64,000 nt of DNA, from the NCBI GenBank assembly GCA_964502815.1, contig CAZCXV010000005.1, positions 2,706-66,705 on the forward strand, read 5' to 3'. The translations under genes were made by a program, and so were the position numbers. Source of the DNA: an uncultured Gammaproteobacteria bacterium (lineage in GTDB: Bacteria; Patescibacteriota; Microgenomatia; UBA8517). Below, piece after piece: positions 1,692 through 63,560 of this stretch (position 1 is its first letter; each line of letters begins with the position of its first letter). The notes under the pieces were generated by a model, which was not told the origin of the DNA, did no database searches, and saw nothing but the letters and a program-made list of their open reading frames with translations.

Positions 1692-1912
1692 AGATGTAGC
1701 ATCACTTTAAAATGATGATACATGCATAGACTAGAGACATTAATTTATCTTGTCAATAGTGGTTTCGGCCTTGGAATGAACGGGTGGAGAGTAGGGCAGG
1801 CTTACTACCCGTTCATTCTGGGGCTGATTTTTTGTTTTCAGACAAAATTTTCATATTCTCCTTACCCCATAATTTGCTTTTTTTGACAAAAATACCTATA
1901 ATATTTAACATA

Positions 1913-3883: not shown

Positions 3884-3916
3884 TTCCTAGAATAAGAAAG
3901 CCTATAATTTGCAAAA

Positions 3917-5422
3917 ATGAAAGTATTAAGAAAAATGTCACTTAAAAAGTCACTTGCTATCTATTTAGTTTTATTTAGTCTATCTGTTTTTGCCCTAAAC
4001 TTTATTAGAACAAAGATTCTTCTGGCGCAAACCTTAAGGGGAACTGATGCAACATTTGATATCTTTAATGGAACAAACTTTGGCGCAGGCAGTGGCTGGG
4101 TAGATCCAGTATCAGCAAATATCAATGAAGGAATTCAGGGTAAAATTACGGCTTGGAATACTGAAGAAGGAACAAATGCGGTTTACACTAAAGTCAGAAT
4201 TGAAATACCAGTAAGTGTTGGGACATCTCACCAGATAATTGCTCATCTTTGGGCCGATAATGCAGCTGAAGTTACAGATACATTAACTATAAATACTACG
4301 GTTCCAACTAGAATTGTGTATCAACCAGGCCATGCAGTGGTTTATTCTCCAGCATGTCCCAATTCATGTCCAATTACAGATAACGCTTTGATTGGGTCTG
4401 GTGTTACTATAGGAAACATCTTAAGTGGCGGAACTGAAAGTGCACAGGTTCATTTTAAAGTGACTATTCTTGAACCAGAACCAACACCAACACCAACTGC
4501 CACGCCTACAGCCACACCGACAAGTACGCCAACTGCTACTCCAACTAGTACTCCCACAAGTACGCCTACAGCCACACCAACCATGACTCCAACTAGTACT
4601 CCTACGGCTACCCCCACTCTTACACCTACAATAACACCAACTGCCACCCCAACAGCAACTCCTACTCCTGATACTCAATTAAAACTTTGTAAATATGAAG
4701 ATGATAATGGGGACGGGGATAGGGATAGTGGTGAAAATGTCCTAAGTTGGAGATTTAGAGTTACTTATAATGGGGTCGTCAGGGATATAGATAGCCACTG
4801 GTGGAATCTTTTTAGCCAAGGTTGTGTAATTATCGATGTTCCTGCAAATACATCTATCACAGTTGAAGAAGAGGGTAGGGCTGGCTGGAGACTAACGGAC
4901 TTGTGGCAAGATGGCCAAAGGGTGAATAACCAAGCAACTTATTCCTACATTTCAAATATTGACAATGTAAAAGTGCTCTGGTTTTTGAACACTTTTACTC
5001 CAGGAGTAACCAATGAAACCAGTAGTTGCGATGATTTGGATGCAGCCCCAACTTCGGGAACAGAAGACCTGACGGTGGCATTTACTGGAAGGGGAGCAAA
5101 CTCAAATGGCTCAATAGACCAATATGAATTTAATTTTGGCGACGGAAATATTACTTCCCAAAGCTCAAACACAGTTTCTCACATCTATTATAATTCTGGA
5201 AGCTATAACGCAAGTCTTAAAGTAAAAGACTCAAGGGGTAACTGGCTATCAAGTGATAATTGTAAATTGACTATAAACGTCAATGCCAAGCCGCAAGTCT
5301 TGGGAACAACTTCTCCAAAGGAGCTGCCAAAAACTGGAGCTACTGGACTGATGTTTATAACTTCTTCATTAATCTCAGTTACATCTGGCATCTACCTATT
5401 TAGAAAGTTTAGATTAGTTTGA
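3917..5422 (+). CDS. LPXTG cell-wall-anchored surface protein with Thr-Pro linker and PKD-like domain
   Basis: N-terminal signal/TM; (TPTA/TPTS)n linker; PKD-like segment (FNFGDGNITSQSSNTVSHIYYNSGSYNASLKVKDSRGNW); C-terminal LPKTG, then hydrophobic stretch, then RKFR tail, which is a sortase sorting signal. Confidence 0.7.
   Translation: MKVLRKMSLKKSLAIYLVLFSLSVFALNFIRTKILLAQTLRGTDATFDIFNGTNFGAGSGWVDPVSANINEGIQGKITAWNTEEGTNAVYTKVRIEIPVSVGTSHQIIAHLWADNAAEVTDTLTINTTVPTRIVYQPGHAVVYSPACPNSCPITDNALIGSGVTIGNILSGGTESAQVHFKVTILEPEPTPTPTATPTATPTSTPTATPTSTPTSTPTATPTMTPTSTPTATPTLTPTITPTATPTATPTPDTQLKLCKYEDDNGDGDRDSGENVLSWRFRVTYNGVVRDIDSHWWNLFSQGCVIIDVPANTSITVEEEGRAGWRLTDLWQDGQRVNNQATYSYISNIDNVKVLWFLNTFTPGVTNETSSCDDLDAAPTSGTEDLTVAFTGRGANSNGSIDQYEFNFGDGNITSQSSNTVSHIYYNSGSYNASLKVKDSRGNWLSSDNCKLTINVNAKPQVLGTTSPKELPKTGATGLMFITSSLISVTSGIYLFRKFRLV
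4483..4675 (+). repeat. In-frame tandem 9-nt (ACN CCN ACN) repeat tract encoding the Thr-Pro-Thr linker
   Basis: Directly visible degenerate ccaacaccaac... repeats. The antisense frame yields the artefactual (VGVA)n ORF 4450..4647. Confidence 0.8.
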
Positions 5423-5429
5423 ATAGGAT

Positions 5430-6152
5430 ATGTATCCCAGAGGTGTAATATATCAATTTGGAGTTTCTAAAAGACGGGGAGTAATAAGTATCAAAGCCCC
5501 TCTTGGAGTTAGGGCTGCCTATTTCTTGTTTAGAGGTCTGGGGGCAGGCTTCATTGGTTTTGCCGTTATGGCCTTCGTTTTCACTTTTGGGCCTCCAATT
5601 AAGGAAGAATTAAACTACCGACTGGTCAAAAAAGATGATCTTGATTATCTTGAACAACTCAAGTTTGCCCAGGCTCAAAAAACCTCAGATATTCAGGAAG
5701 AAGCTAAAGCCCTAGGTCTTGACTCCTATTTCTCTTTGTATATCCCAAAGCTAGAAGCTAAAGCCAAAATAATTTCCAATGTTGACCCAACTGCCAAAGA
5801 AGAATACCTCTCTTCCCTGCAAAAAGGCGTTGCCCACGCCAGAGGGACGCATTTTCCAGGCCAAGGGAGTTTAATATATCTTTTTGCCCACTCAACTGAC
5901 TCCCCAGTCAATTTTACCAGATATAACGCTGTTTTTTACCTTCTCTCAAAGCTGGAACAAGGGGATATCGTTACGGTTTACTTTGCAGACAAGAAGTATG
6001 TGTACCGAGTATCGGATAAAGTATTAGCCAAGGCTGAAGATACCTCTTGGCTGACAAAGGAATATGGTGAGGAAGTGTTAGTCCTGCAGACTTGTGATCC
6101 TCCAGGAACTACTTGGAATAGACTTTTGGTTATTGCCAAACCCATCCCATAG
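5430..6152 (+). CDS. Sortase family transpeptidase
   Basis: N-terminal TM anchor, conserved His (LFAHS), catalytic LQTC (TLxTC) motif and downstream Arg; lies immediately after an LPXTG substrate gene. Confidence 0.7.
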   Translation: MYPRGVIYQFGVSKRRGVISIKAPLGVRAAYFLFRGLGAGFIGFAVMAFVFTFGPPIKEELNYRLVKKDDLDYLEQLKFAQAQKTSDIQEEAKALGLDSYFSLYIPKLEAKAKIISNVDPTAKEEYLSSLQKGVAHARGTHFPGQGSLIYLFAHSTDSPVNFTRYNAVFYLLSKLEQGDIVTVYFADKKYVYRVSDKVLAKAEDTSWLTKEYGEEVLVLQTCDPPGTTWNRLLVIAKPIP

Positions 6153-6155
6153 TAC

Positions 6156-6184
6156 TTGACAAAGCTTTTTTTGTATCCTATAAT
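6156..6184 (+). promoter_or_regulatory. sigma70-type promoter (TTGACA-17 nt-TATAAT)
   Basis: TTGACA 6156-6161, exact 17-nt spacer, TATAAT 6179-6184, 7 nt before ATG 6192. Confidence 0.45.
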
Positions 6185-6191
6185 TCCCCAG

Positions 6192-7268
6192 ATGTACAAA
6201 AAGCTTGCCTTTACAGCTTTAATAGTTGCCCTAGTAGCCGGGTTTATTTTCTTTGGAAAACTTCTAGTAAAAGCTGCAACCTCGGTTTCTTTCGATCCAG
6301 CAGTAGTAGCTGTTAATCCTGGGGATTCTGTAACTGGTGATGGCAGTTTGATGTGTGGACTAATCATCGGAAATAGCGGAGAAAACACCGTTTCCTACAT
6401 TCAAGAAGGAACCCAACCTTCAGCTTATGGAGCAAACAATAGCGATGTCGATCTAAATAGCTTCCAAAATGGCTGTTTGCCAAAAGGTTTTGGAATTGCC
6501 GATTTGGGGGATGGAAGTAGCGCGATGAGTAAAACTCATTTGTATGACTTTAGTTTTTCGGCTGGAACTACAGTCAACGCTTTTTCAATCTCTATTTCTG
6601 ACTGGGGAGATTACTTGCCAAATGTCAAAGGAATGGCAGGTCGCCATGAAATGATTCTTACCGCCTATGATTCTGCTAATACAGTACTTGATACTGCAAG
6701 TTTAGTTTTTGATACAGATTATAACGCCAAAGCCGTAAATAGAAATTCTCCACAATTTGGGGCAATGACTAGGGCAGGAGACGCCTGTCAGGCAACCTCT
6801 GGCCAGCCGGGAAACTTTACTTTAACTGTTAATGGATCTGGAATCGCCAGAGTTGAGCTAAGATATGCCGATGCCCAAAGTTATGATCCAAATATTGGGA
6901 TTTCTGACATTACCTATGTTTTAGAGGATGGCGCTGTTGCAACTAGATGTGCTGGAACACCAGTTACTTCACCTGTACAAAATGATATGTGTGCAAATAT
7001 CGAAGGAGTTCAAACCAGTGTTCCAAACGACTATCATATCGACGCTTCGGGCAGAAACTGCGTCCAATATCAATTGGGTGGAGCACCACAAAACAGTGGA
7101 TCAAATAGTGGCCAGGTTTTAGGAACAACTACAACCAAAACAGGATCTGTCCTGGGAGTATCTACTTTGGGAAGTACTGGAAGCTTAGATGACCTAATGA
7201 ATATTGTTTTTACCTTAGGCGCAGGCTCAGTCGCCTTTGGGCTTAGAAAATCCTCTCTTGACAAATAA
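6192..7268 (+). CDS. Secreted protein with possible non-canonical C-terminal sorting signal
   Basis: Signal/TM (MYKKLAFTALIVALVAGFIFFG). C-terminus is LGSTGS, then a 20-aa hydrophobic stretch, then RKSSLDK. The ORF-tool TTG start at 6156 overlaps the promoter -35, so ATG 6192 is preferred. Confidence 0.5.
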   Translation: MYKKLAFTALIVALVAGFIFFGKLLVKAATSVSFDPAVVAVNPGDSVTGDGSLMCGLIIGNSGENTVSYIQEGTQPSAYGANNSDVDLNSFQNGCLPKGFGIADLGDGSSAMSKTHLYDFSFSAGTTVNAFSISISDWGDYLPNVKGMAGRHEMILTAYDSANTVLDTASLVFDTDYNAKAVNRNSPQFGAMTRAGDACQATSGQPGNFTLTVNGSGIARVELRYADAQSYDPNIGISDITYVLEDGAVATRCAGTPVTSPVQNDMCANIEGVQTSVPNDYHIDASGRNCVQYQLGGAPQNSGSNSGQVLGTTTTKTGSVLGVSTLGSTGSLDDLMNIVFTLGAGSVAFGLRKSSLDK

Positions 7269-8553: not shown

Positions 8554-9690
8554 CTATTTTTTGACAAAATCAAGATAATTTTCTCTTGATATCAATTTTA
8601 CTTCAACTTTATAGAGATCTCTAAAAGTTTTTGGGGTAGTAATTTTTTTGCTTTTCCATTTGAACTCAAACGCTCTAATCTTATTTTCCTTTATTTCCAC
8701 CCAATCAACTTCTGCTTTTTCATAGCTTCTCCAAAAGAAGTTCTGAACAGTTTCTTGATTATATTCCTGTACCTTAAGGCGTTCTACAGCTAAGAAATTT
8801 TCCCAAATTTGTCCAATGTCTGGACGGATATCTAGAGAGGCAAACTGGCCAATCAATGAGTTTCTTACCCCAATATCCCAAAAGTAGTACTTTTTGCTCT
8901 TTACAACTTCAGTTCTTAAATTTCTGGAGAATGCTCCTAATTCAAAGATAATAAATCCGCTTTTTAATAAGTAGATATACTTAGATATTGTTTTAACGTC
9001 AACTTTAAGTTTTGTTGCCAATTCATTTAGAGAAACCTCAGAACCTAATTGGAAAGCAAGAAGAGTTGCTAGGTTTTTTATAACCTCTGGATAGGCTATT
9101 TGTTGTAAAGTTGTTATTTCTCTAAATAGATATTCATTTGCCAATTTTTGCAAATAAGCAATTTTTTCGGAAGGAGATCCTAGTTGAGTTAAATATGGAT
9201 ATCCGCCGAACAATAATTGATTTTCTAAAAGATATGGAGTTTGGTATTCTTCAAGATTTTCAGACAATTCAGTTGTTGAAAAAGGAAAAAGATGAAATTC
9301 ATTAATTCGTCCCGTAAGAGTTTCTTTCATGCCTGTTGCAAGATCTAGAGACGAAGAGCCTGTAACAATAACTTTTTTGTCTGGAAAGTTGTCAATAATT
9401 ATTTTTATAGACAGTGCAATGTTTGGAATCCTTTGTGCTTCGTCTATTGAGATGACGGAATAGGGCTTTACTAAGTTTTCTAGGTGCACTATGGAGGTAT
9501 TTCCTAAGGCATCTCTTGCTTCTTGAGTGTCGCCATTGAGATTTAAGACTTTTTGTAAGTCTTTTTCTAGAGAACTGACAACCTGATTTAAGAGTATAGT
9601 TTTTCCTACTCGTCTAGGACCATAAATTACGGTTACAAAACCAGGCTTAAAAGAATTCAAGATGACTGGAAAAAGCTGTCTTTGTATCAT
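8554..9690 (-). CDS. AAA+ ATPase, AAA_14/DUF4143 family
   Basis: Walker A GPRRVGKT near the N-terminus, Walker B hhhhDE; C-terminal DUF4143-like region. Confidence 0.65.
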   Translation of the reverse strand: MIQRQLFPVILNSFKPGFVTVIYGPRRVGKTILLNQVVSSLEKDLQKVLNLNGDTQEARDALGNTSIVHLENLVKPYSVISIDEAQRIPNIALSIKIIIDNFPDKKVIVTGSSSLDLATGMKETLTGRINEFHLFPFSTTELSENLEEYQTPYLLENQLLFGGYPYLTQLGSPSEKIAYLQKLANEYLFREITTLQQIAYPEVIKNLATLLAFQLGSEVSLNELATKLKVDVKTISKYIYLLKSGFIIFELGAFSRNLRTEVVKSKKYYFWDIGVRNSLIGQFASLDIRPDIGQIWENFLAVERLKVQEYNQETVQNFFWRSYEKAEVDWVEIKENKIRAFEFKWKSKKITTPKTFRDLYKVEVKLISRENYLDFVKK

Positions 9691-11043: not shown

Positions 11044-12339
11044 ATGACAAGGAAAGAAATCTTGAAAAGTATTATTTTAGAGAGCCAAAATAGGCAAATG
11101 CCTCAGATTTGGCCCAGAAATTTGGTTTTGCCAATTGACTCCGGTAAGATAGTTACCTTGATGGGGGTGAGAAGAAGTGGTAAGACCTACCTTTTGTTCG
11201 ATTTAATAGATAAACTCATCAAAAAAGGCATACCTTCAAAGAGAATCTTTTATTTGAATTTTGAGGATGAACGTTTGAAACTTAACTCTCGCGAGCTTGA
11301 CTTAATAATACAGTCTTATAGAGAAATATATCCAGATAACGATTTATCAGAATGCTACTTTTTTTTCGACGAAATTCAAGAAGTTAAAGGTTGGGAAAAA
11401 TTTATTATCAGACTATATAACACTATAAGTAAGCAGATCTTTTTAACTGGGTCAAATGCCTCCTTTTTATCAAAAGAAATAGCTACAGCGCTAAGAGGTA
11501 GGACTGTTACTTTTGAAGTTTATCCATTGTCATTTAAGGAATATTTAAACGTTCTTTCTCCTGGTCTTAACCCACTCCATTCTAGTGACAGAGCTAAGGT
11601 TGTCAGTTTTTTTGATAGATTTCTACATCTAGGGGGGTTTCCTGAGATGGTAGACAGAAAAGACAATTTGCATGAAAAAATACTTCAGGAATATTTCAAT
11701 GTTATGGTTTTTAGAGATCTTATAGAAAGATACAATATATCCCAGGCTTCAATACTTAAATATTTCTGTAAAAGAGTAGTGGCCAATAGTGCTTGTGAAT
11801 TCAGTTCTAATAAAATATACAATGAGATTAAGTCTCAAGGTTATAAAGTTGGTAAAGACGCTATCTACAACTACCAAAACAACGTTGAATCTATTTATCT
11901 TGCTAGATTTATTCCGAAATACTCGTATTCAATCGTTAAAAGTGAATTATCTCAAAAGAAGAGCTATGTAATTGATCAAGGTCTGGGAGTAGCTCTAGAC
12001 TTTAAGTTAAATCAAGACAAAGGAAGGTTATTGGAAACAGTTGTCTGCTTGGAACTATTAAAGCAGGGCAGTTCAATCAGCTATATCCAAAACGGAACAG
12101 AATGTGATTTTCTAGTTGTTGAAAAAGATAAAGTTACAAAGGCAATTCAAGTTGCCTTTGATGTTTCAGATGAAAAAACAAAAGGCAGAGAATTAAAAGG
12201 GTTAATTGAAACTTGTAAGAAGTTTGAGTTGAAAGAAGGATACATTCTTACTTTAGATGAAGAAGAAGAATTAATAACCAAAAATCTAAATATCCATATT
12301 GTTCCAGTCTGGAAATATTTTACTTTCGACACCCTATAA
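11044..12339 (+). CDS. AAA+ ATPase, AAA_14/DUF4143 family (paralogue of 8554..9690)
   Basis: Walker A GVRRSGKT; same architecture as the minus-strand paralogue. Confidence 0.65.
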   Translation: MTRKEILKSIILESQNRQMPQIWPRNLVLPIDSGKIVTLMGVRRSGKTYLLFDLIDKLIKKGIPSKRIFYLNFEDERLKLNSRELDLIIQSYREIYPDNDLSECYFFFDEIQEVKGWEKFIIRLYNTISKQIFLTGSNASFLSKEIATALRGRTVTFEVYPLSFKEYLNVLSPGLNPLHSSDRAKVVSFFDRFLHLGGFPEMVDRKDNLHEKILQEYFNVMVFRDLIERYNISQASILKYFCKRVVANSACEFSSNKIYNEIKSQGYKVGKDAIYNYQNNVESIYLARFIPKYSYSIVKSELSQKKSYVIDQGLGVALDFKLNQDKGRLLETVVCLELLKQGSSISYIQNGTECDFLVVEKDKVTKAIQVAFDVSDEKTKGRELKGLIETCKKFELKEGYILTLDEEEELITKNLNIHIVPVWKYFTFDTL

Positions 12340-12447: not shown

Positions 12448-15400
12448 TTACCAGATGGCAATCCAATCAATAACTGTATCCTCCAGAGGAGCAGTTGCTA
12501 CATTTATAGTAAAGCCTGTTTCATCTCTATTTGTTAGCCAAACATTGGTGTTATAAGAAGGAGTAATGCTAACAGAAACGGGCTTTGTCTCCCAAGTTTT
12601 ATTTATGCGTACTGAAGTCTGGCCGGCAGGAAGTATTTCACTTCCTCTAAAGGTTGGATTACCAATAATTTGACCCTTTTGGATATTTAAGTTTCCTTTA
12701 GTATCTACTTTGAGTAAGTTACCCATTATTTCCACATCCCCCAGTGCCAATGGTTGGATTTTTAAGGTGCCAATAGCGTCTATAGAGGAGTCTAAGGAAG
12801 AGATTTGAATAGCGCCAACATTTAATTTACCTGTAACTACGACGTCATTTAAAGTGGTAAGACCTGTAAGGCTTGCGCTAGCAGACGCTGATTGAATTTC
12901 TCCAGATTGGGTTGCAGTTCCAAGAATTTGTTGTTGACTTTCTAAAAGCGCAATCTTTGTCTCCAACTCTGATATTTTTGTCGAAAGTTCTATGTCTTTG
13001 TCTTTGAGGTTGGTAATATCTTTCATTAAATCTGTGTTGTCTTGTGTATCTAAATTATTGATTTTGTTATTTAGTTCTAGAATGTAAAGGGAATTTGTCT
13101 CTGCCGTTTCCCAGAGTTGAGAAGCAAGGGAGCCAAGGGAGAATTTGCCATTTTTCCTCCATTCATCGCGCCCTGCAATTGTTGGCAAGTGTCTGTTTTG
13201 ATTAACATATACTCCCATTTCATCTAAGGTCATCATAGAGTAATCTCCGTGTAGATCTATATCTTCTTGTCTCACATTTCCATCAAAGTATTTGTCGAAA
13301 ACATAGTCGGTCAAGAGGACATTATCATCATATACAGCAACTGCATTTAAGGTTCCTATTCCTTTTGCTCCTCCTGTTGGGGCACCAACTACTACAGAAC
13401 CATCCCCATAAGTAGTCAGGGTTGCAGCATCATCATTATTTGCTATTTGAAACACCGTCTCTGCAGCTGCCAGATCGACAATACCGGTGCCACTTCCTTT
13501 GGCACCCACGAGTTTAATTGCAGGGACGGTGTCGTCGGGAGTATTGCCCAGGATGCCTCGAAGGGAGAGTGCTTGAGCGGTATTGACGTTATCTGCCAGG
13601 GCGGTGAGTTGAACTCCACCATCTGTGGATGAGATGGCACCAACGTGTAAGAAGGCATCGGTATTGGCAAGCGTTGTGACTCCATGAGCCACATCGCCAT
13701 CGGTCATGCTGAAGGTGGAGTCAGAGCCAGAAGCGCGGAAAAGTTCGAGCGTGGTGTCGGGGGTGCCGTCAGCACCACCGATGACGGTGTTGCCGTCTTC
13801 AGAGTTGATGATGGTGGTATTGGTGCCCACATCAGAAATATCTGTCGTATTGCTTTCTAATTGATTGAAAGAAATCACGTTATCAGCTTCTGTACTTGCC
13901 GCTATGTTTATACCTATGTCTCCCGCGCCGGAAAATCCGGAAATGCTGTTGCCATTTATAATGTTGCTGTCAGAATTGGTAACAACGTTTATACCCTTGC
14001 CACCGGTCCCATCATCCACAATTGTGTTGCCGGTGACGGAATTGTAAGAAGCGGTCCACAGAGCGATAGCTCCCTGCGCTGAACCGGGATTAGTAATCGT
14101 ATTACCCGTAATGCTATTGTAGTTTCCCTGGGAAAAGACGAATGAATTTATACCACCCTCGTAGGTATTGTTGGCAACGACTATTGAATTTGCGGTGGCA
14201 ATAATACCGTACTGCCCATAGGTGTTTTGCTCAAAATGGTTATTTTCAACACTGTTATAGTGTGAAGAACTCGCAAAAGCAATCCCGGCATAATCTTGAT
14301 TGAGGAATGTACTGCCGGTGATTGTGTTGTATTGGGATGATGTAGTAAGCTGAATACCGTATTCATCTCCGCCGGTAAAATAGAGATTCCGAAATACAGA
14401 CTGTATTGCCCCTGCTCCGATCATTATCTGATAACTATTTCCTCCCCCATTTTGCGCCGTAGCATCAACTTGAAAATCAGAAAACGTGAGGTAATCTTTT
14501 CCATTCAGGTTAATGATGTGTCCCGGCGTCCCCCATGATGCCCAGGCGGAAGCGACGATCTTGCTTCCCTTCCCCGCGCCTCGGATCGTCGTATTGTTTG
14601 CATCAATCGTGATGGATTCTGTACACGTATAGGTCCCCTCAGGCAGGTAAACTTCTCCTCCATTTGCCCCTAACGCATCGATGGCGGCATTGATACCTGT
14701 ACACGTCTGGGCATAGACAGTGCCGTCAACAGTAATCACTTTGTTTAATTCTGGTGCATACACCGTGCCATCACCCAAAATATACAAAGCATTTGAGTTG
14801 TCGTTATTTGCAACTGCAAACACTGTATCAGCTGCTTCCAGATCTATCACTCCGGTTCCTGAAGCCAAAGCACCAACAAGCTTGATGGCAGGAGTAGTGT
14901 CGGTGGGAGTAGTCTGGACTGCCTTGATTTCAAGTGCTTGCCCATCAGCATCGGCAAAAGCAGTGAGTCTAGCACCGCCAACAGTAGAGGAGATGGGAGC
15001 AAGATGGAAGAAAGCATCAGTATTGGCAAGTGTGGTCACCCCGTGGGCGACATCATCATCGGTCATGGCAAAGGTAGGGTCAGACGAGGCAGCGGTATTG
15101 AGTTCGAGGAGATAGTCTGGGGTAATGTCACCACCAATGCTTGTATTGCCAGAGAAGTAGTTGTAGGTACTAGCATCGGATGCGTAAAACGAATACGGAG
15201 TGTTGGTTTGGGTGCCAGCTGTAAGATCGCCGATATAGACTCCGTAGGTGTTAGTAAACGTTCCAGAATTGGCTTCTACATCTGTATAGAACCCATAGAC
15301 AGTAGCTGCTGTTGCGGAAGACCGCCAATCTATTCCTGATGCTACTCCACTGAGTGTCGAAAGCGATCCTGTTGTTGCGGCAGATAGAGCTCCGGATTCG

Positions 15401-18279
15401 ACATATACACCCTTTATAGCACTAATGGAGCCTGTATTGTTAACATTGGATGACTTTACATACAATCCTATATTGTTGCTCGAATAATTTGTGCCACCCC
15501 CTGAAAGCGTCATGTCTACTTCTGCGCCGGCAACAACACTACCAAGGTTTGCTGTAGGAGTGAAGGTTAAGGATGTATAAGAAGCAATACGGCCTGTGGC
15601 ATTGGAAGCACTATTCACTACGTGGAGGCCGTATGAAGGTGCTGTACCGCTTCCTAAGAAATATCCACTGTTGGTATAGATATCGCCATCAACAATTACA
15701 TCTGCGCCGGCTGGGTCTAAGGTTAAATCACCAGAGGCAGATAAAGTATTGCCTGAGAGATTTAAAGTGCCGGCAATGTCATGCGTACCTGCGCCGTTAA
15801 TGTCCAGGACTCCTGCTGCGGTCAGGTTGCCTGCATTGGAGAGGTTGAAGACGTCGGTGCCGTCGGATTGTTCGAAGACGGCCAGATCAGTGGTCTGGGT
15901 GGCATTGCCTTGGATAATGAACTGGATTTGGTCAGTGTCTCCATCAATACTGAGTTTGGCGCTTGAGAGAGGGGAGGATCCTCCTAAGATAACTTCATTG
16001 GTAGTGGTGGTGAGGTAGGTATTGGTGGTGGATGTAGTCCAGGGAGCACCGGCTCCTCCAGTAACATCAATCCAGGCCAAAGTACCTGTAGCATTACTGG
16101 ACAAGACTTGATTAGCTGAAGAAGCATCAGCAAGAGGAAGAACGTAAATGACATTTCCTGCCAATGAGTCAGGAGCTTTAAATCCAGTATAGTGGTCGCC
16201 ATTGGCTTCCAGTTCTTCAAAATCAATTTCACCTGTTGTGCCAGCGGTGGTGTTGTAGGGGTTTAGATGTAATCCAGAGGCTGAGATATCCATCCAAAGA
16301 GGTGAGTCGGAAGTGGTGCTACCAAGAGAAAAGTCATCGGTAGTGGAGGTGAGGTAAGTGATGTCACCTCCATCAGTCCATTGAGAACCAGCCCCTGCCG
16401 AGACATTAATCCAAGAGAGGACCCCGGCTCCACTACTGGCAAGGACTTGGTTACTGACGGTGGCATCAGCTGAAGGGAGTGTGTAGACAATGTTGGCAAT
16501 AAGAGAGTCAGGGGCTTTCAGGCCGGTGTAGTGGTCACCATTGGCTTCCAACTCCTCAAATCTTGCCTCACCAGTATTGCCAGCACTGGCGCCATGAGGA
16601 TTGAGGGAAAGGGCAGAAGCAGAGGTATCAAAGAAGAGAGGTGAGTCAGAAGTGGTGCCACCAACAGATAGATCATCCGCAGTTGCAGTTAAGTATGTAA
16701 TTGTTCCTCCATCAGTCCAAAGAGAACCTCCAGCAGCTGCAACATCAACCCAGGCAGATCCATTATACATCATCAACTTGTTGTCGTCAGAGTCCCAGGC
16801 GACGTAGCCTTCTCCTGTTGAAGGAGCTGTAAAAGAGGTGGCCTGTGGAAGTTTAATGCCTTCGGCCGATGTAGTGTTGTGAGTGATAGTAGAAAGGTCA
16901 AGGAGTAAGTCACTACCGGCAACAATATTGCCACTGCTGTTAAAGGTAACGAAAGCAGTTCCATTGTCTTGAATAACAAAGTCTCCACTACTAGATAAGT
17001 TGAAGGTAGTGTTACTGGAGCCTGAGTTAGTTAGAGTTAAAAGACCAGTATTCCCAACGGCAAAGATATCGGTGCCGTCGGATTGTTCAAGAACTAAAAG
17101 ACTTTCTGTTTGCGTACTGTTGCCTTGGATCTGAAGCTGGATGATGTCCGATGAGCCATCAATCATTAGTTGGGAAGTTCCAGCAGTTACAGAACCCAAG
17201 GTCATTTTGGATGAAGAAAGGATGTCACTTCCGCCAACGACTAAAGTTAAGTCTCCAGTAGTCGTGAAGGTAGTTGTGGCTCCATCAAAGGCAATGTCAG
17301 TATCGGCAATCAAAACTTCAGAATTGATATCCAGAGTTCCAGCAATAGTTAGAGTATTACCACTTTCATAAGTGTCTGTTGCATTAGAACGTAGGAAAGC
17401 TGTGGAATCTAGTCCGTCAATTTTATCGACGTCCAAACTTGAATCTAGATCAGTAAGGGCTTTCCATGAAGGAGCTAGAGCACCATTGCTGACAAAAATT
17501 TGATTGGCTGTGCCAACAGCAGACACTTGCATTCCAGTGGCTGTAGAGTAGGCAATTCCTCCTTCAGCCAGAGTTAACCCGTCTAAGTAATTAAGTTCAG
17601 AGGCAGTGCTGGTAAGAGAGGTACCGTTAATTACTAGGGAATTAATAGTTGCAGATCCAGTTGCAGTCAAATCCCCAGTAGTTAATTCATTAACAGTTAA
17701 GCCATTCAAAAAACTGACGGCTGCCCTAAATACACTTTCTACATTTACTCCAAATGTCGGGTTTTCCAGAGCTTCTGCAGCCAAGACTTGGGATTTTCTG
17801 CCTTTATTCGCCATAATCTCACTTATGTTACTACTATTAGTAAACATCTGAGACAAAATTGGAATATCGAAGGTATTTGATATAGTTTGTAGGTTTTTGA
17901 TAGCTATTGGAAAAAATGTTTTTGTCAACATTAATCCCGCCAGAAGCCAGATAAAAAACATGATTCCAGCTTTTACTATTGTCTTTCTTTCTTTTGATAG
18001 ATCGTCGTACAGGTTTGGATAATTAGTGATTTGAACTAGCTCTACTTCTCGAGCTTTAATCTCTGGTGTAATAACTGTCTTCTCACTTTGTTTTGGCCGG
18101 TGTTTTTGAACTAAACTTTCAAGGATATGAAGATCATACCTCCTATGACCACCTTTAGTTCTCTTAGAAGGAAGGATGCCCTTTTTTTCCCACCTCCTGA
18201 GAGTGTCTTTTGAAACACACAAGACTTTGCTTGCTTCCTCAATTGTCAGATATCTTTTGTCTTTTTTGGGCAGATCCAT
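12448..18279 (-). CDS. Giant (1943 aa) membrane protein: cytoplasmic excisionase/MerR-type HTH, one TM helix, extracellular parallel beta-helix / fibre region
   Basis: N-terminus YLTIEEASKVLCVSKDTLRRWEKKGILPSKRTKGGHRRYD matches the HTH_17 excisionase family. TM IMFFIWLLAGLMLTKTFFPIAI. PbH1-like repeats (NNHFEQNTYGQYGIIATANSIVVANNTYEGG...). C-terminal coiled coil and beta-rich domain. Confidence 0.75.
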   Translation of the reverse strand: MDLPKKDKRYLTIEEASKVLCVSKDTLRRWEKKGILPSKRTKGGHRRYDLHILESLVQKHRPKQSEKTVITPEIKAREVELVQITNYPNLYDDLSKERKTIVKAGIMFFIWLLAGLMLTKTFFPIAIKNLQTISNTFDIPILSQMFTNSSNISEIMANKGRKSQVLAAEALENPTFGVNVESVFRAAVSFLNGLTVNELTTGDLTATGSATINSLVINGTSLTSTASELNYLDGLTLAEGGIAYSTATGMQVSAVGTANQIFVSNGALAPSWKALTDLDSSLDVDKIDGLDSTAFLRSNATDTYESGNTLTIAGTLDINSEVLIADTDIAFDGATTTFTTTGDLTLVVGGSDILSSSKMTLGSVTAGTSQLMIDGSSDIIQLQIQGNSTQTESLLVLEQSDGTDIFAVGNTGLLTLTNSGSSNTTFNLSSSGDFVIQDNGTAFVTFNSSGNIVAGSDLLLDLSTITHNTTSAEGIKLPQATSFTAPSTGEGYVAWDSDDNKLMMYNGSAWVDVAAAGGSLWTDGGTITYLTATADDLSVGGTTSDSPLFFDTSASALSLNPHGASAGNTGEARFEELEANGDHYTGLKAPDSLIANIVYTLPSADATVSNQVLASSGAGVLSWINVSAGAGSQWTDGGDITYLTSTTDDFSLGSTTSDSPLWMDISASGLHLNPYNTTAGTTGEIDFEELEANGDHYTGFKAPDSLAGNVIYVLPLADASSANQVLSSNATGTLAWIDVTGGAGAPWTTSTTNTYLTTTTNEVILGGSSPLSSAKLSIDGDTDQIQFIIQGNATQTTDLAVFEQSDGTDVFNLSNAGNLTAAGVLDINGAGTHDIAGTLNLSGNTLSASGDLTLDPAGADVIVDGDIYTNSGYFLGSGTAPSYGLHVVNSASNATGRIASYTSLTFTPTANLGSVVAGAEVDMTLSGGGTNYSSNNIGLYVKSSNVNNTGSISAIKGVYVESGALSAATTGSLSTLSGVASGIDWRSSATAATVYGFYTDVEANSGTFTNTYGVYIGDLTAGTQTNTPYSFYASDASTYNYFSGNTSIGGDITPDYLLELNTAASSDPTFAMTDDDVAHGVTTLANTDAFFHLAPISSTVGGARLTAFADADGQALEIKAVQTTPTDTTPAIKLVGALASGTGVIDLEAADTVFAVANNDNSNALYILGDGTVYAPELNKVITVDGTVYAQTCTGINAAIDALGANGGEVYLPEGTYTCTESITIDANNTTIRGAGKGSKIVASAWASWGTPGHIINLNGKDYLTFSDFQVDATAQNGGGNSYQIMIGAGAIQSVFRNLYFTGGDEYGIQLTTSSQYNTITGSTFLNQDYAGIAFASSSHYNSVENNHFEQNTYGQYGIIATANSIVVANNTYEGGINSFVFSQGNYNSITGNTITNPGSAQGAIALWTASYNSVTGNTIVDDGTGGKGINVVTNSDSNIINGNSISGFSGAGDIGINIAASTEADNVISFNQLESNTTDISDVGTNTTIINSEDGNTVIGGADGTPDTTLELFRASGSDSTFSMTDGDVAHGVTTLANTDAFLHVGAISSTDGGVQLTALADNVNTAQALSLRGILGNTPDDTVPAIKLVGAKGSGTGIVDLAAAETVFQIANNDDAATLTTYGDGSVVVGAPTGGAKGIGTLNAVAVYDDNVLLTDYVFDKYFDGNVRQEDIDLHGDYSMMTLDEMGVYVNQNRHLPTIAGRDEWRKNGKFSLGSLASQLWETAETNSLYILELNNKINNLDTQDNTDLMKDITNLKDKDIELSTKISELETKIALLESQQQILGTATQSGEIQSASASASLTGLTTLNDVVVTGKLNVGAIQISSLDSSIDAIGTLKIQPLALGDVEIMGNLLKVDTKGNLNIQKGQIIGNPTFRGSEILPAGQTSVRINKTWETKPVSVSITPSYNTNVWLTNRDETGFTINVATAPLEDTVIDWIAIW
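16045..16725 (-). repeat. Two tandem ~113-aa (339-nt) repeats inside the giant gene
   Basis: Repeated units WTDGG(T/D)ITYLT...SDSPL...EELEANGDHYTG(L/F)KAPDSL...VLP.ADA...NQVL. A second duplicated ~110-aa module (TDxDVAHGVTTLANTDAF...AIKLVGA..GTG) flanks the beta-helix core at ~14745-15132 and ~13420-13765. Confidence 0.7.
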
Positions 18280-18383
18280 AATTTGTATTTAAATTTATGT
18301 TTTTTTGAAGCTAAATTTAGGTATTCAACTTTAGCCTCAAATCATTAAGACATATAAATACTATAGTGTCAAGAGTGGTTTAG

Positions 18384-21599: not shown

Positions 21600-22206
21600 T
21601 GAGAAGTTGGCTGGCTTTGCCAAAAAAGGCTGGCTATTTCTTTTGCCCTTGGTTGGTTTACTCCTAATAGGTTTTGGAATTCTGGCTGCTAAAGTTTCTC
21701 TAACTCCTTTAGAAAAAGTGGAGATAATAAGCCCCTCAACACTTCCTGAAAATTTTTCAGAAATCATTGTAGAAGTTACAGGGGAGGTCAATAAACCTGG
21801 AGTATACCACTTACCAAAAGATTCCAGAATTGAAGATCTGCTTTTCAAAGGGGATGGGTTTACCAAAGACGCTGATAGTAAATGGATTACCAAGAATTTA
21901 AATCGGGCGGCAAAACTTGTTGACGGGCAAAAGTTGTATATCCCTAATCAGTCGGAAGTCTTGAGTGCCAGCGTTGTAACTACGGGGTCGACTACATCAA
22001 ACAGTATCATTGGCAATTCTGCAACAAACATCAATATTAACTCTGCAAGCAAAGAACAGTTGGAATCTTTGTCAGGAATAGGCCCTGTTTACGCCCAAAA
22101 GATAATTGACAACAGACCTTACTCAGATATCTCTGAACTGACTTCCAAAAGAATAATTCCTCAAAAAACCTTCGACAAGATAAAAGACCAGATTTCTGTT
22201 TACTGA
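21562..22206 (+). CDS. comEA: Competence protein ComEA (SLBB plus helix-hairpin-helix DNA receptor)
   Basis: N-terminal TM, SLBB-like VTGEVNKPGVYHLP, C-terminal tandem HhH (LESLSGIGPVYAQKIIDNRPY). Start uncertain; it overlaps the leuS 3' end. Confidence 0.7.
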   Translation: MFPEKLSILLQSDEKLAGFAKKGWLFLLPLVGLLLIGFGILAAKVSLTPLEKVEIISPSTLPENFSEIIVEVTGEVNKPGVYHLPKDSRIEDLLFKGDGFTKDADSKWITKNLNRAAKLVDGQKLYIPNQSEVLSASVVTTGSTTSNSIIGNSATNININSASKEQLESLSGIGPVYAQKIIDNRPYSDISELTSKRIIPQKTFDKIKDQISVY

Positions 22207-23270
22207 TGAAAATACGCTATCTTTTTTGGCTTGTCTTAATATCCATTTTTGCTGTCAGATATGTTTACACTAGACCAGTTTATAAAGATGGGGATAGAGT
22301 AAGAATTACAACTAGCGTTAGGTCTGAACCATTAAGATATCCTAATTCCCAATACTTAAAAATATCAGGGTTAAAAACATATTTACCTATATTCCCTGAA
22401 CTTTCGTATGGTGACAATATAATTGTTGAAGGAACAGTTGATAACCAAAAGGGAAGGCTTAAAAATCCAAGTCTTTTAAACGTCCATAAAAGTACTAATT
22501 TATTGTATCACTTTAGACAAAGGCTAATTAACTTTTATAAGTCTTCTCTTCCCCAACCACATTCTTCATTAATTGCCGGGGTTGTTATTGGCGCCAAACA
22601 AAATCTCCCTCCAGATTTTTGGCAAAGTTTGAAAAACAAAGGTCTGGCTCATGTTGTCGTGGCGTCGGGAATGAACATTACTTTAGTGGGAGGATTTCTC
22701 TTAAACTCAACTCTTCCAGCCTTTGGCAGAAAAAAAGCTTTGACGATAGCAGTAGCGGGAATCTGGACCTACGCGTTTGTCTCAGGTTTTGATGCCCCGA
22801 TAGTCAGAGCTGCCATTATGGGAACAATTGCCTTTACGGCTCAACAGTTTGGCAGGGTTAATCTACCTTTAAGGGCTCTGTTTTTGACAGCTTTCTTAAT
22901 GCTTATAGTAAATCCCAGTTGGATATTAGACTTTGGTTTCATTCTTTCGTTTACGGCGACGCTGTCATTGATACTGTTTCAGACTAAAGTTGGTAGATTG
23001 ATATATTTTGTACCAGAATTTTTGAGACAAGATTTGGCGACTACCTTGGCAGCCCAAATAGGAGTTGCTCCAATTTTGTATTTTGCTTTTGGCCAACTGA
23101 ACTTTTTGTCGCCAGTTTATAACCTCCTTGTTCTTTGGACAATTCCTTTAATAACAATATTTGGCTTTATGGGAGGACTAATAGGCTTGATTGTTCCAGA
23201 GGTTGGTAGATTGATACTATTTGTTGTATATCCTTTGACTTCTTGGTTTGTCTTAGTTACAACTAAGTAA
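22206..23270 (+). CDS. comEC: ComEC/Rec2 competence channel, membrane (DUF4131 plus Competence) domains only
   Basis: Polytopic membrane protein with ComEC-type motifs (LAHVVVASGMNITLVGGF). It ends in a stop codon before the metallo-beta-lactamase domain. Confidence 0.65.
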   Translation: MKIRYLFWLVLISIFAVRYVYTRPVYKDGDRVRITTSVRSEPLRYPNSQYLKISGLKTYLPIFPELSYGDNIIVEGTVDNQKGRLKNPSLLNVHKSTNLLYHFRQRLINFYKSSLPQPHSSLIAGVVIGAKQNLPPDFWQSLKNKGLAHVVVASGMNITLVGGFLLNSTLPAFGRKKALTIAVAGIWTYAFVSGFDAPIVRAAIMGTIAFTAQQFGRVNLPLRALFLTAFLMLIVNPSWILDFGFILSFTATLSLILFQTKVGRLIYFVPEFLRQDLATTLAAQIGVAPILYFAFGQLNFLSPVYNLLVLWTIPLITIFGFMGGLIGLIVPEVGRLILFVVYPLTSWFVLVTTK

Positions 23271-23297: not shown

Positions 23298-24149
23298 ATG
23301 AAAATATTTAAAAATTTCGCCGTTTTGTTATTACTTCTTAACGCAACTGTGTGGATTTCGGTATTTGCCTTTCCAAACGACAAACTCCAGCTAATTGCTT
23401 GCGATGTAGGACAAGGGGATGCAATTCTTATTAACTACAAAAGCTTTCAGATATTAACAGATGGAGGACCTGATAATTCTGTATCAAATTGTTTGTCAAA
23501 ATATATGCCTTTTTGGGATAGGACAATTGAAGTAGTTATTTTGACAAATCCAGACAAAGATCACTACCAAGGACTTATTGATGTCCTAAAAACTTACAAA
23601 GTGGAAAACTATATTGAAAGCTATTTACCAGATAGCACTCAAGGATACAAAGTGCTACAAGATACAGTAGGGAGTAGTGGTACTAAGGTGTTAAAACCCC
23701 AAAAAGGCACAAGTATCAGGTATGGTTTGATGTCTTTAGATATAATTTACCCAGAAGGTAGTGTAAAAACTGATTTTAAAAGTCCTCAAAACAACAATTC
23801 AACTGTTACAGTTCTTATATTTGGAGATTTTAAGGCCATATTTACCGGAGATATTGAAGAGGAAGCCTCAGATTATATGGCTCAATATATTAACATTGGA
23901 AAGGTAGACTATATCAAAGTAGCACATCACGGAAGTAAGAATGGAATTACTAAGAGCCTGTTAGAACAATTAAGGCCAAAAATTGCGGTTATCTCTGCGG
24001 GGAAAAAGAATAGTTATGGCCATCCCCACAAAGAAGTCCTAGATATGCTTCAAGAATACCAAGTAAAAATCTATGGCACCTATGACAATGGAGATATAAT
24101 ATTTACAACAGACGGAAAGACTTATCAGAAAGATAAATTTCCATATTGA
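23298..24149 (+). CDS. ComEC-type metallo-beta-lactamase domain protein (separate ORF with its own N-terminal TM)
   Basis: ACDVGQGDAILI...DHYQGL...VAHHGSKNG MBL motifs. 27-nt gap and a different frame from the upstream comEC membrane ORF. Confidence 0.65.
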   Translation: MKIFKNFAVLLLLLNATVWISVFAFPNDKLQLIACDVGQGDAILINYKSFQILTDGGPDNSVSNCLSKYMPFWDRTIEVVILTNPDKDHYQGLIDVLKTYKVENYIESYLPDSTQGYKVLQDTVGSSGTKVLKPQKGTSIRYGLMSLDIIYPEGSVKTDFKSPQNNNSTVTVLIFGDFKAIFTGDIEEEASDYMAQYINIGKVDYIKVAHHGSKNGITKSLLEQLRPKIAVISAGKKNSYGHPHKEVLDMLQEYQVKIYGTYDNGDIIFTTDGKTYQKDKFPY

Positions 24150-40082: not shown

Positions 40083-40583
40083 ATGACCCAGATAAGCAAA
40101 CTAAATCTACTTTTGAAATCAGGTAGGAAGTTGTTCCACACTCAGGATTTAGCGGTTTTGTGGGCAATGGAAAACAGAAACTCACTTTATACTGTCATTA
40201 AGAGAATGGTAAAGAGGGGTATTTTACTTCCTGTCATAAAAGGTCTTTACTCAACCGTCCCACTTAATGAAATCAATAAATACCAATTGGGAACTGCCCT
40301 AATTCACAAATATTGTTATGTGAGTTTGGAAACTGTTCTTTTCAATGAGGGAATAATTCATCAAAAGATTTATCCGATAACTTTCGTGTCTTCTGTTTCT
40401 CAAAAAGTTGAACATGATGGTGTACTGTATATCTACAGAAAGATGAAGCCCGAGTTATTTTTTTCTCCAGATGGAATTGAAGAAAAAGATGGTTATTTTA
40501 TTGCAAGCCGTGATCGGGCTATTTCTGATATTTTGTATTTTAACCCTAAATACTATTTTGACAGTCTTGAAGAAGACAAATAA
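40083..40583 (+). CDS. AbiEi-family antitoxin / transcriptional regulator (type IV TA)
   Basis: N-terminal winged HTH with AbiEi_4 hallmarks (LAVLWAMENRNSLYTVIKRMVKRG...YVSLETVLFNEGII), upstream of an NTase partner. Confidence 0.7.
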   Translation: MTQISKLNLLLKSGRKLFHTQDLAVLWAMENRNSLYTVIKRMVKRGILLPVIKGLYSTVPLNEINKYQLGTALIHKYCYVSLETVLFNEGIIHQKIYPITFVSSVSQKVEHDGVLYIYRKMKPELFFSPDGIEEKDGYFIASRDRAISDILYFNPKYYFDSLEEDK

Positions 40584-40586
40584 AAA

Positions 40587-41324
40587 ATGATAACAGCGAA
40601 AAAAGAAGACCGTCTACATGAATTCCAGCTCATAAAACTTTTGACCGGAGTTTGTGACAATGAGATTCTTGCCCAAAACCTTTTTTTTAAGGGTGGTACT
40701 TGTGCTGCCTTGGCTGGATATTTGGATAGATTTTCAGTTGATTTGGATTTTGATTTGAGTCCAAAGGCAAACAAAGCAAAAGTAAGAGGAGAGTTGGAAA
40801 AAGTTTTTAAAGGGTTAGATTTTACAATTGAAAACAATAATCAGAAAACACTCTATTTCACCCTGAAATATAAATCCCCCGGTATTCAAAGAAATACACT
40901 TAAGCTGAGTGTCTTTGAAGAGATAGTTGAATCAAATGACTACAAACCAATATATTTGGCGCAAATTGAGAGACTAGTTAACTGTCAGGTTATTGAAACA
41001 ATGTTTGCTAATAAGTTGGTCACTCCTGTAGATCGATACCAAAAACATAAAAAGGTGGCCGGAAGAGATATATATGACATCTATTATTTTTTCTTCCAGG
41101 GGTATGATTTCAAAAAGGAAATTATTGAAGAGAGGACTGGATTAAATACTTCTGATTATCTTGATAAACTAATAAGTTTTATAGAAGAACGAGTAACTGA
41201 AGACATTTTAACCAGAGATCTAAATCTCCTTTTGCCATATGAAAAATTCAAAATAATAAGGAAGACACTAAAGAATGATGTTTTAATGCTTTTAAAAGGT
41301 TTTGGTCGGAGTGGGCAGAATTGA
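40587..41324 (+). CDS. AbiEii/AbiGii-family nucleotidyltransferase toxin (DUF1814)
   Basis: NTase motif FKGGTCAALAGYLDRFSVDLDFDL (hG[GS]...DhD). 4-nt gap after the AbiEi gene; the 3' end overlaps tRNA-Pro. Confidence 0.7.
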   Translation: MITAKKEDRLHEFQLIKLLTGVCDNEILAQNLFFKGGTCAALAGYLDRFSVDLDFDLSPKANKAKVRGELEKVFKGLDFTIENNNQKTLYFTLKYKSPGIQRNTLKLSVFEEIVESNDYKPIYLAQIERLVNCQVIETMFANKLVTPVDRYQKHKKVAGRDIYDIYYFFFQGYDFKKEIIEERTGLNTSDYLDKLISFIEERVTEDILTRDLNLLLPYEKFKIIRKTLKNDVLMLLKGFGRSGQN

Positions 41325-48143: not shown

Positions 48144-48147
48144 GTAA

Positions 48148-49326: not shown

Positions 49327-49430
49327 TTATACCACTTGTTGGCACCTGAAAAGACAAATATAATGCTTTTGCTAGTGGTGCTTTGACTAGATCAAAATAC
49401 CAACAAACTGAAACATCTACATATAAAAAA

Positions 49431-63537: not shown

Positions 63538-63560
63538 TTTCTTTTGTTTTAAAAACTTAT

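Follow-up and report, generated by a model that had tools for sequence, protein, structure and literature searches.

The stretch analysed here, a 64-kb window of contig CAZCXV010000005.1 to whose full length all coordinates refer, is, judging by Pfam scans of its open reading frames (ORFs), an ordinary piece of chromosome of the candidate phyla radiation, here from an ultra-small bacterium of groundwater. It encodes two giant proteins in which a winged helix-turn-helix (HTH) domain, a single transmembrane (TM) helix and a very long fibre-like ectodomain are joined in one chain. We call the products of the four ORFs of interest P1, P2, P3 and P4:

12448..18279, minus strand: P1 gene (ORF call), 1943 amino acids (aa), with HTH, linker, TM helix and giant fibre
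58786..63051, plus strand: P2 gene, 1421 aa from a TTG start, a P1 paralogue with a similar N-terminal module and a C-terminal knob
63076..63537, plus strand: P4, 153 aa with a single TM helix (ORF and TM helix), between P2 and P3
63622..63870, plus strand: P3, a stand-alone BldC-like HTH protein of 82 aa (74 aa from its probable start, ATG 63646)

The original prediction for this DNA described membrane-tethered HTH regulators fused to giant fibres, in three copies. Both giant ORFs are present in the ORF list at the positions and lengths it gave, but the three copies are really two giants and one small protein, P3. The P1 product is identical to public protein P0113, which appears in the list from the cluster-representative profile search described below, and the P2 coordinates match a public gene call exactly. 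P1 aa 3–169 and P2 aa 9–169 are homologous (BLASTP, E 1e-12) over a span that covers the TM helix and runs up to a VLAA motif.

Each of P1, P2 and P3 contains a genuine winged HTH of DNA-binding type. A family hidden Markov model (HMM) run on a six-frame translation of the window finds exactly three HTHs, one in each of these proteins; those of the two giants are placed as follows:

18100..18252, minus strand: P1 winged HTH, BldC-like, aa 10–60 (Pfam/NCBIfam, PDB sequence match, AlphaFold, Foldseek)
58831..58974, plus strand: P2 winged HTH, aa 16–63 (Pfam MerR, 32.1 bits; family HMM, 67.9 bits)

In P1, aa 12–48 match the MerR model (E 6e-11, 42.4 bits against a cut-off of 28.2), and HTH_17 (33.7 bits, cut-off 27) and TIGR01764 (30.2 bits, cut-off 28.8) are also passed. 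P2 clears the same MerR cut-off of 28.2 and falls just below that for HTH_17 (26.6 bits against 27), whilst P3 matches MerR_1 and HTH_17 at E 3–5e-9, with three Pfam models above cut-off. By curated cut-offs, these are members of the MerR/HTH_17 superfamily (PF00376, PF13411, PF12728, TIGR01764), so that the excisionase/MerR-type HTH predicted at the N-termini is borne out, its fold matching that of BldC–DNA complexes. As for HTH_17 and TIGR01764, the two models named with that prediction, both recognise P1 and neither recognises P2, TIGR01764 being passed by P1 only. NCBIfam matches to BldC and to the IS607 HTH lie below threshold in all three proteins; the BldC model NF033787 gives 34.3 bits for P1 and 43.6 bits for P3 against a cut-off of 77.

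Amongst solved structures, the closest relative of the P1 HTH by sequence is Streptomyces BldC (6AMK/6AMA; PDB search, E 2e-5). An AlphaFold model of P1 aa 1–264, built on an alignment of 27 relatives, has the expected arrangement of a winged HTH (predicted local distance difference test score, pLDDT, >90), then a linker, then a confident helix at aa 96–136, with low confidence further on. When the HTH of this model was used in Foldseek, BldC–DNA complexes came top (root-mean-square deviation 1.2 Å over 49 residues, 41% identity), followed by RacA–DNA, CarH, NmlR, GlnR, SoxR and a mycobacteriophage Xis. A classical MerR regulator can be rejected: neither AlphaFold nor Pfam finds a C-terminal coiled-coil dimerisation helix or an effector domain after the HTH, and the MerR_1 match in P1 covers only profile positions 2–43 of 69. 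Since a MerR-type coiled coil and effector domain are lacking, the HTH is a minimal winged HTH in the style of BldC, Xis and RacA. Two further candidates were set aside. An excisionase or recombination directionality factor does not fit a gene with no adjacent integrase and a conserved position in the chromosomal backbone, and an IS607 transposase does not fit proteins in which PF00239 is absent (P1, P2 and P3) when the IS607 matches carry it.

The HTHs were compared with BldC across the family described below, using a pool of 231 HTHs from 145 TM-bearing members (from the cluster-representative search and the genome scan) placed in BldC numbering, with the DNA-contact and head-to-tail interface residues of BldC taken from PMC5859096. 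Conservation at the key positions is as follows:

BldC T27: T in 98% of the family
BldC T29: R in 99%
BldC R30 (base-specific, essential): R in 93%
BldC W31: W in 77%, L in 20%
BldC R41: R in 94%
BldC G44 (essential): G in 77%
BldC R47: R in 99%
BldC Y49: Y or F in 100%

K26 and H46, the positions that set specificity in BldC, are variable across the 231 HTHs. Backbone contacts that do not vary, together with specificity positions that do, are the pattern expected of sequence-specific binders whose targets have diversified, and the family HTHs have probably retained DNA binding; to judge by conservation, these contact residues are the strongest sign that the HTH is functional. In P1 itself, T26, R29, W30, K32, G43, H45, R46, R47 and Y48 correspond to BldC T27, R30, W31, K33, G44, H46, R47, R48 and Y49. 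P1 thus resembles BldC in having both the contact and interface residues and no dimerisation domain, whilst the small stand-alone form of the BldC family (~70 aa) is seen in P3 only and not in P1 or P2. Two HTHs in tandem are found in 84 of the 145 members and one in 60, with 6–8 in a single protein. Such tandem or multiple copies fit, by analogy, cooperative head-to-tail binding on direct repeats in the manner of BldC. The protein with 6–8 tandem BldC-like HTHs, P0114 (623 aa), has a single TM helix at aa 493–521 and almost no ectodomain.

Two alternative readings of the HTH turn on these data. According to the first, which we regard as unlikely, the proteins would tether the chromosome to the envelope: the HTHs would bind DNA architecturally, bending or anchoring it in the way of RacA, Xis and BldC, and pin the nucleoid, or one locus, at the anchor of the fibre, for example at a host-attachment pole, with no signalling involved. 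RacA, a MerR-like chromosome-anchoring protein, and Xis come next after BldC in structural comparisons, and there are weak matches to RacA in NCBIfam; invariant backbone-contact residues and arrays of up to 6–8 HTHs would suit avid architectural binding, and the huge, variable ectodomain is unlike a sensor. However, the variation at BldC specificity positions beside fixed backbone contacts suggests diversified, sequence-specific targets, and the window holds two paralogues within 64 kb with a different HTH in each. The second alternative, which we consider improbable, dispenses with DNA binding altogether and has the HTH repurposed as a protein-binding or anchoring domain that links the fibre to a cytoplasmic partner. 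RodZ provides the model: it has the same layout of HTH, TM helix and ectodomain, and its cytoplasmic HTH binds MreB, for which there is a gene in the window (49383..50435). Against this, the HTH is of MerR/BldC type and not of the XRE type found in RodZ (HTH_25/HTH_31)—the only XRE-type match, HTH_3, reaches 16.7 bits against a cut-off of 23 and the MerR-type models win—and the 93–99% conservation of the base-contacting and wing arginines is hard to explain without DNA binding.

Between the HTH and the fibre lies a short region whose parts can be located in both giants:

17995..18099, minus strand: P1 cytoplasmic linker, predicted to be disordered, aa 61–95 (pLDDT ~50–58, without secondary structure)
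17899..17982, minus strand: P1 TM helix, aa ~100–127 (hydropathy; AlphaFold helix aa 96–136, pLDDT 84–95)
59122..59199, plus strand: P2 TM helix, aa 113–138 (hydropathy 3.2)
17722..17787, minus strand: P1 juxtamembrane stalk base, from VLAA (aa 165–168) to FGVNVESVF (aa 176–186)
59278..59289, plus strand: P2 VLAA, aa 165–168

Hydropathy plots reveal one strongly hydrophobic segment per giant, and the single TM helix predicted to follow the HTH is found in both, supported in P1 by the AlphaFold helix and in keeping with an N-in, C-out orientation. Neither P1 nor P2 has an N-terminal signal peptide. Because of this, and because the N-terminal regions are net basic and the ectodomain is made of tailspike parts, a single-pass type II topology with the N-terminus inside and the C-terminus outside is the only sensible one to predict. 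Amongst the 145 family members, the HTH ends a median of 57 aa before the TM helix starts. In 118 of the 145 (against 37% of control windows), a [VIL]L[GA] motif is found a median of 31 aa after the TM helix, and beyond it comes a conserved FxVNVxSxF...L(T/S)ASN stretch. These features argue that the N-terminal ~250 aa form a single conserved unit that bears variable fibres. The VLAA motif stands at residue 165 in both P1 (17776..17787) and P2 and fits the -3/-1 rule of signal peptidase I; at ~30–40 aa past the TM helix, it is too distant for a canonical site of that enzyme. The VL(G/A) motif is a candidate cleavage site only.

Beyond the stalk, the ectodomains show the following features:

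16039..16782, minus strand: P1 ~113-aa tandem repeats, aa 500–747 (self-BLAST, 61–64% identity, E ~1e-39)
14164..14445, minus strand: P1 right-handed beta-helix core, aa 1279–1372 (Beta_helix 35 bits, NosD 31 bits, TIGR03804 repeat)
13042..13404, minus strand: P1 tail-fibre-type module, aa 1626–1746 (homologue search)
12916..13137, minus strand: P1 long alpha-helix, probably a coiled coil, aa 1715–1788 (AlphaFold, 74 residues, pLDDT >90)
12451..12735, minus strand: P1 C-terminal beta-sandwich knob, resembling a lectin or tail-fibre tip, aa 1849–1943 (pLDDT >90, Foldseek)
62704..62922, plus strand: P2 C-terminal knob, aa 1307–1379, homologous to that of P1

Besides its ~113-aa repeats, P1 has two further duplicated modules in self-BLAST, and duplicated modules flank the beta-helix core (aa 1027–1173 and 1479–1629, 59–63% identity). 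The module at aa 1626–1746 is the C-terminal end of many 300–540-aa proteins of unrelated bacteria, some of which carry DUF2793, and aa 1797–1943 recur at the C-termini of Patescibacteria proteins. An AlphaFold monomer model of aa 1592–1943 (mean pLDDT 80) consists of a small helical domain, the 74-residue helix and the beta-sandwich knob. In Foldseek, the knob matches the C-terminal domain of the cyanophage Pam1 tailspike (E 7e-4) and H-type lectins, with further matches to R2 pyocin fibre tips, phage AP22 gp53 and the C-terminal domains of K1-capsule lyases. P2 has no beta-helix match in Pfam and no internal repeats, and PDB sequence searches with the P1 and P2 ectodomains gave no matches. 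The C-terminal module that the two giants share is marginal in BLASTP alone (E 0.034) and well supported by hhalign (probability 94.5%, E 7.6e-8). Of the features that had been predicted for both giants, the beta-helix, the tandem repeats, a probable coiled coil and the shared C-terminal module are thus present in P1, whereas in P2 the shared module was recovered and the beta-helix and repeats were not.

The ectodomain is a mosaic of phage tailspike and tail-fibre parts, P1 having both the Beta_helix/NosD core and the knob that mark such proteins, and the comparison that had been drawn with surface adhesins and tailspikes is therefore apt in parts as well as in scale. By analogy, it is probably trimeric and glycan-binding. 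Amongst 38 long relatives, Pfam finds the HTH in all 38, Peptidase_S74 in seven, Beta_helix in two and Peptidase_G2 in one, and collagen, intein, GDSL lipase or LytR_C domains in single members. Peptidase_S74, the intramolecular chaperone domain of phage tailspikes, is absent from P1 and P2. Membership of a phage or tailocin gene cluster was considered and rejected: the neighbours are housekeeping genes, and none of 72 HTH relatives from viral contigs has the HTH–TM–giant architecture.

How widespread is the design? Our first homologue search, with P1 aa 1–204, returned mostly the HTHs of IS607 transposases, the fragment P0010 being the only true relative amongst its matches. With a profile of the N-terminal region, an exhaustive search over 1.84 billion cluster representatives matched 11,033 of them at E <1e-3 and 1212 at E <1e-10. 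Amongst the best 150 representatives, 110 have one or two HTHs (6–8 in one protein) and then a single TM helix at aa ~75–250, and lengths reach 4725 aa. Their source records name them ‘MerR family DNA-binding transcriptional regulator’, ‘helix-turn-helix domain-containing protein’ or ‘excisionase family DNA binding protein’, and the named organisms include Patescibacteria, Levy-, Woese-, Shapiro- and Collierbacteria and Saccharibacteria. A scan for loci in one genome per species was made with a five-sequence N-terminal alignment, a whole-protein alignment being too diverged for this, and yielded 373 relatives; 52 of the best 80 have an HTH, one TM helix and more than 250 aa, and many of these 52 ORFs overrun the 10-kb flank at >3400 aa. 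Shorter HTH–TM ORFs were also seen amongst the best 80, the rest being mostly ~205-aa IS607-type transposases of unrelated phyla, without a TM helix. The credibly labelled loci of the 52 belong mostly to Woese-, Levy-, Ames-, Chisholm- and Daviesbacteria and other Microgenomates. With 52 loci of species genomes and 110 of the 150 best representatives, the design is not a one-off but recurs across a whole bacterial lineage, mainly Microgenomates. Loci L015, L016 and L026 and other TPA_asm records are titled ‘uncultured Gammaproteobacteria bacterium’ or ‘uncultured Pseudomonadales bacterium’, and their LeuRS is 55–58% identical to that of the window. This is as close as in Woesebacteria records, which makes the Gammaproteobacteria titles unreliable and, like those naming Pseudomonadales, evidently wrong.

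The relatives P0247 (3356 aa), P0175 (3418 aa) and the giant ORFs of loci L065 and L079 lie, at differing positions, within a block of LeuRS, ComEA, ComEC, metallo-beta-lactamase (MBL) and ArgRS genes; LeuRS is found 6–9 kb upstream of the giant gene in ten other loci, and P0122 and P0115 are encoded between the ATP synthase operon and rplJ–rplL. That the giant gene is kept within a conserved LeuRS–ComEA–ComEC–ArgRS backbone indicates a vertically inherited core gene. A functional link to ComEA and ComEC, beside which the giant gene stands in L001 and L005, was rejected as backbone synteny, as the position of the gene shifts within the block. The idea that the giants are relics of a mobile element or prophage (an accidental fusion of an IS607-type HTH with a prophage tailspike gene), or else an artefact of assembly or gene calling, is effectively refuted by these observations. 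Taken alone, the HTH is closest to IS607 transposases, with 60–70% identity over ~45 aa, and the ectodomain modules are phage-like, but the serine-recombinase domain is absent, the fusion recurs in more than 100 distinct clusters at 50% identity as well as in the 52 species-genome loci, chromosomal position and juxtamembrane stalk are conserved and the viral-contig relatives (0 of 72) lack the architecture.

P3 had been viewed, together with the ORF that follows it, as a split version of the giant design. This view could not be upheld. Orthologues of P3 that are 75–81% identical exist in five other genomes (L003 26822..27106; L004 16743..16958; L052 2479..2703; L056 1197..1415; L070 1419..1700), whereas LeuRS is only 40–59% identical, and in two of these genomes the gene adjoins rplJ–rplL; the ORF after P3, of which 23 codons are visible, has a promoter-like site of its own. 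On sequence evidence, P3 is a separate, conserved stand-alone BldC-like protein and not a degenerate or split copy, and it seems to be a BldC-like core regulator or nucleoid protein of Microgenomates. The giant genes show only a weak association with small HTH genes: across 56 loci (835 kb) there are just five small HTH ORFs, all of them P3 orthologues. P4 homologues (41–62% identity) are found near HTH–TM giant genes in L052 (1810..2133), L064 (7584..7817) and L066 (9381..9608), and P4 may be an accessory partner of the giants.

An inverted repeat overlapping the P3 promoter had been proposed as a site of autoregulation:

63558..63600, plus strand: P3 promoter-like site, TTGACA-17-TATCTT, overlapped by a 10-nt inverted repeat

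The repeat is real, a perfect 10-nt pair (TATCAAACAC/GTGTTTGATA, at 63558–63567 and 63587–63596) around the promoter-like site. Its autoregulatory role finds no support: a TTGACA-N17-TAyTyT promoter is recognisable upstream of the P3 orthologues but all five of those promoters lack the inverted repeat, and the half-site ATCAAACAC shows no enrichment, with 22 matches in the window where 21 would be expected. P1 has a repeat of a different kind, in its 5' leader. Between a promoter-like TTGACA and the start codon, at 18282..18325, lies a 22-nt direct repeat (77% identity, copies 22 bp apart), each copy of which carries a TAAATTTA palindrome; it could be a chance occurrence in AT-rich DNA. There are no repeats upstream of P2.

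The leader bears on a further reading in which the work is done by the fibre, an adhesin or polysaccharide depolymerase, and the HTH acts only in cis, either in autoregulation of the giant gene or by holding that gene at the membrane whilst its very long chain is exported co-translationally. The ectodomain does have a full list of tailspike-like parts, an N-terminal HTH is the first part to leave the ribosome and the P1 leader offers a direct repeat with two TAAATTTA palindromes. That repeat is, however, AT-rich and possibly due to chance and P2 has none upstream, and we think it improbable that the HTH serves in cis alone.

Our preferred reading, to which we would give slightly less than an even chance, is that P1 and P2 are single-pass transmembrane transcription regulators with an adhesive fibre as sensor, their output following the state of the fibre; this function is inferred. 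BldC-like HTHs, predicted to be cytoplasmic, are joined by a flexible linker of 35–60 aa to one TM helix, followed by the conserved VL(G/A)...FxVNV stalk base and a long, fast-evolving ectodomain, which across the family includes either a lectin-like knob or a Peptidase_S74 chaperone domain. The fibre, as a trimer, would bind a glycan on the surface of a host or neighbouring cell, and its state—oligomerisation, load or cleavage—would alter the seating of the tethered HTHs on AT-rich direct repeats, where they would sit head-to-tail in the manner of BldC, so that transcription would follow cell contact. The HTH might act either whilst tethered or after proteolytic release; for tethered action, the nucleoid would always be within reach of the membrane in cells a few hundred nanometres across. 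A more specific version, which strikes us as quite unlikely, is a Notch-like contact receptor in which binding of the trimeric fibre to a glycan of the host surface, or mechanical load upon it, would lead to cleavage near VL(G/A) and within the membrane and so release the HTH; the one or two HTHs set free would then assemble head-to-tail on direct repeats and switch on a programme for the attached state.

Several points weigh against a sensor–regulator. DNA binding, the target site and the regulon are all inferred, as are the trimeric state of the fibre, its ligand and any cleavage. The ectodomains, at 1300–4600 aa, are far larger and more variable than the characterised sensor domains of the class, and look like an adhesin or depolymerase in their own right. 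The second-best structural matches in Foldseek, RacA and Xis, are architectural DNA binders and not regulators. The patterns near P1, P2 and P3 differ, with TAAATTTA palindromes at the first, no repeats at the second and an unrelated inverted repeat at the third, and the giant-gene orthologues, at ~30% identity, are too diverged for promoter footprinting. Finally, there is no Pfam match to the site-2 protease family amongst the window ORFs scanned.

The architecture suggests that host contact may be linked directly to the chromosome. If the Notch-like version were true, recognition of a host would reach the chromosome by way of one protein, in bacteria with very few regulators. The family offers a concrete handle on the ways in which the ultra-small episymbionts of the candidate phyla radiation recognise and respond to their hosts. 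One polypeptide joins a phage-like host-binding fibre to an apparently intact DNA-binding domain, and the label ‘MerR family transcriptional regulator’ hides more than 95% of each protein. Should the coupling be real, membrane-tethered transcription factors would extend to sensors of adhesin size and tailspike modules would have been reused as cellular receptors.

The remaining genes of the window include those for RadA, a sortase, Rho, an M23 peptidase, LeuRS, ComEA, a split ComEC, ArgRS, NDK, ATP synthase, TGT and MreB. P1 is oriented divergently to the tRNA-Ala and LeuRS genes. Directly upstream of P2 and on its strand, across a 94-bp gap, are a PAS/HAMP histidine kinase and a receiver-only response regulator (56363..58692), preceded by two NMT1-type binding proteins; L071 has weak homologues close to a short HTH–TM protein. 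ComEC is split into a Competence-domain ORF and an MBL ORF (22206..23270 and 23298..24149), and L005 and L065 repeat both this split and the order LeuRS–ComEA–ComEC–MBL–ArgRS.

Just downstream of P1, a LysM–M23 peptidase gene is flanked by paralogous AAA_14/DUF4143 ATPase genes (8554..9690, minus strand, and 11044..12339, plus strand). At 1784..7268, a sortase gene (5430..6152) is accompanied by a gene for a PKD-domain protein (3917..5422) and two large ORFs of 699 and 370 aa without Pfam match, in what may be a sortase-dependent surface or pilus cluster. Genes for FG-GAP-repeat and PEGA-domain surface proteins on the minus strand adjoin the MreB gene (together 46749..50435), so that an actin-like cytoskeleton gene has been kept by an ultra-small organism. 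There are also two AbiEii toxin genes of type IV toxin–antitoxin systems (40083..41324 and 51626..52895), each preceded by a small ORF, the second of which has a weak AbiEi match.

Amongst known systems, the closest in layout are ToxR, CadC and TcpP, in which, as in P1 and P2, a DNA-binding domain at the cytoplasmic N-terminus is connected by one TM helix to a C-terminal domain outside the cytoplasm. The original likening to ToxR and CadC is thus sound as regards topology but not as regards the DNA-binding domain, which is of BldC/MerR type, often in tandem, and not an OmpR-type winged helix; Trans_reg_C has no Pfam match in P1, P2 or P3, which places them outside the ToxR/CadC family. The ectodomain differs too, being a tailspike-like fibre of 1300–4600 aa instead of a compact sensor of ~100–250 aa. 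Under the operational definition of a transmembrane transcription regulator, a DNA-binding domain and a TM helix in one polypeptide (PMC10269533), P1 and P2 belong to the class. The survey behind that definition covered 50,302 proteins, with 386 MerR, 350 MerR_1 and 151 HTH_17 domains, and the word ‘Patescibacteria’ is absent from its text and stored supplements (PMC10269533).

In its HTH the family is closest to BldC of Streptomyces (PDB 6AMA, 6AMK): P1 has equivalents of all of R30, W31, G44, H46, R47, R48 and Y49, and like BldC lacks a MerR-type dimerisation helix and an effector domain. BldC is, however, a free cytoplasmic protein of 68 aa, whereas the domain is tethered to the membrane in P1 and P2, with P3 as the stand-alone counterpart. 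RacA of Bacillus subtilis likewise has a MerR-like winged HTH and attaches DNA to the cell envelope, but it is a symmetric coiled-coil dimer with neither TM helix nor ectodomain and reaches the membrane through DivIVA. The fibre has the beta-helix, coiled coil and lectin-like knob of phage tailspikes and tail fibres (Pam1, AP22 gp53, R2 pyocin and the endosialidase-type Peptidase_S74 proteins) and differs from them in its conserved position on a cellular chromosome and in having an N-terminal TM anchor where phage fibres have a virion adaptor.

RsgI-type anti-sigma factors and Notch-like receptors are also alike in overall plan, with a regulatory N-terminus in the cytoplasm, one TM helix and a large binding domain outside the cell, and they provide the model for proteolytic release triggered by force or binding. 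Unlike these, P1 and P2 have a cytoplasmic domain of apparent DNA-binding type in place of an anti-sigma domain, and have no identified autoproteolytic juxtamembrane domain or protease. In the literature searched, subscription journals lying outside its scope, we found no published account of a protein in which a TM helix connects a BldC-like HTH with a giant fibre of tailspike type. As a class, transmembrane transcription regulators are known and widespread; the variant seen here, with its giant tailspike-like fibre, is solid as regards its architecture.

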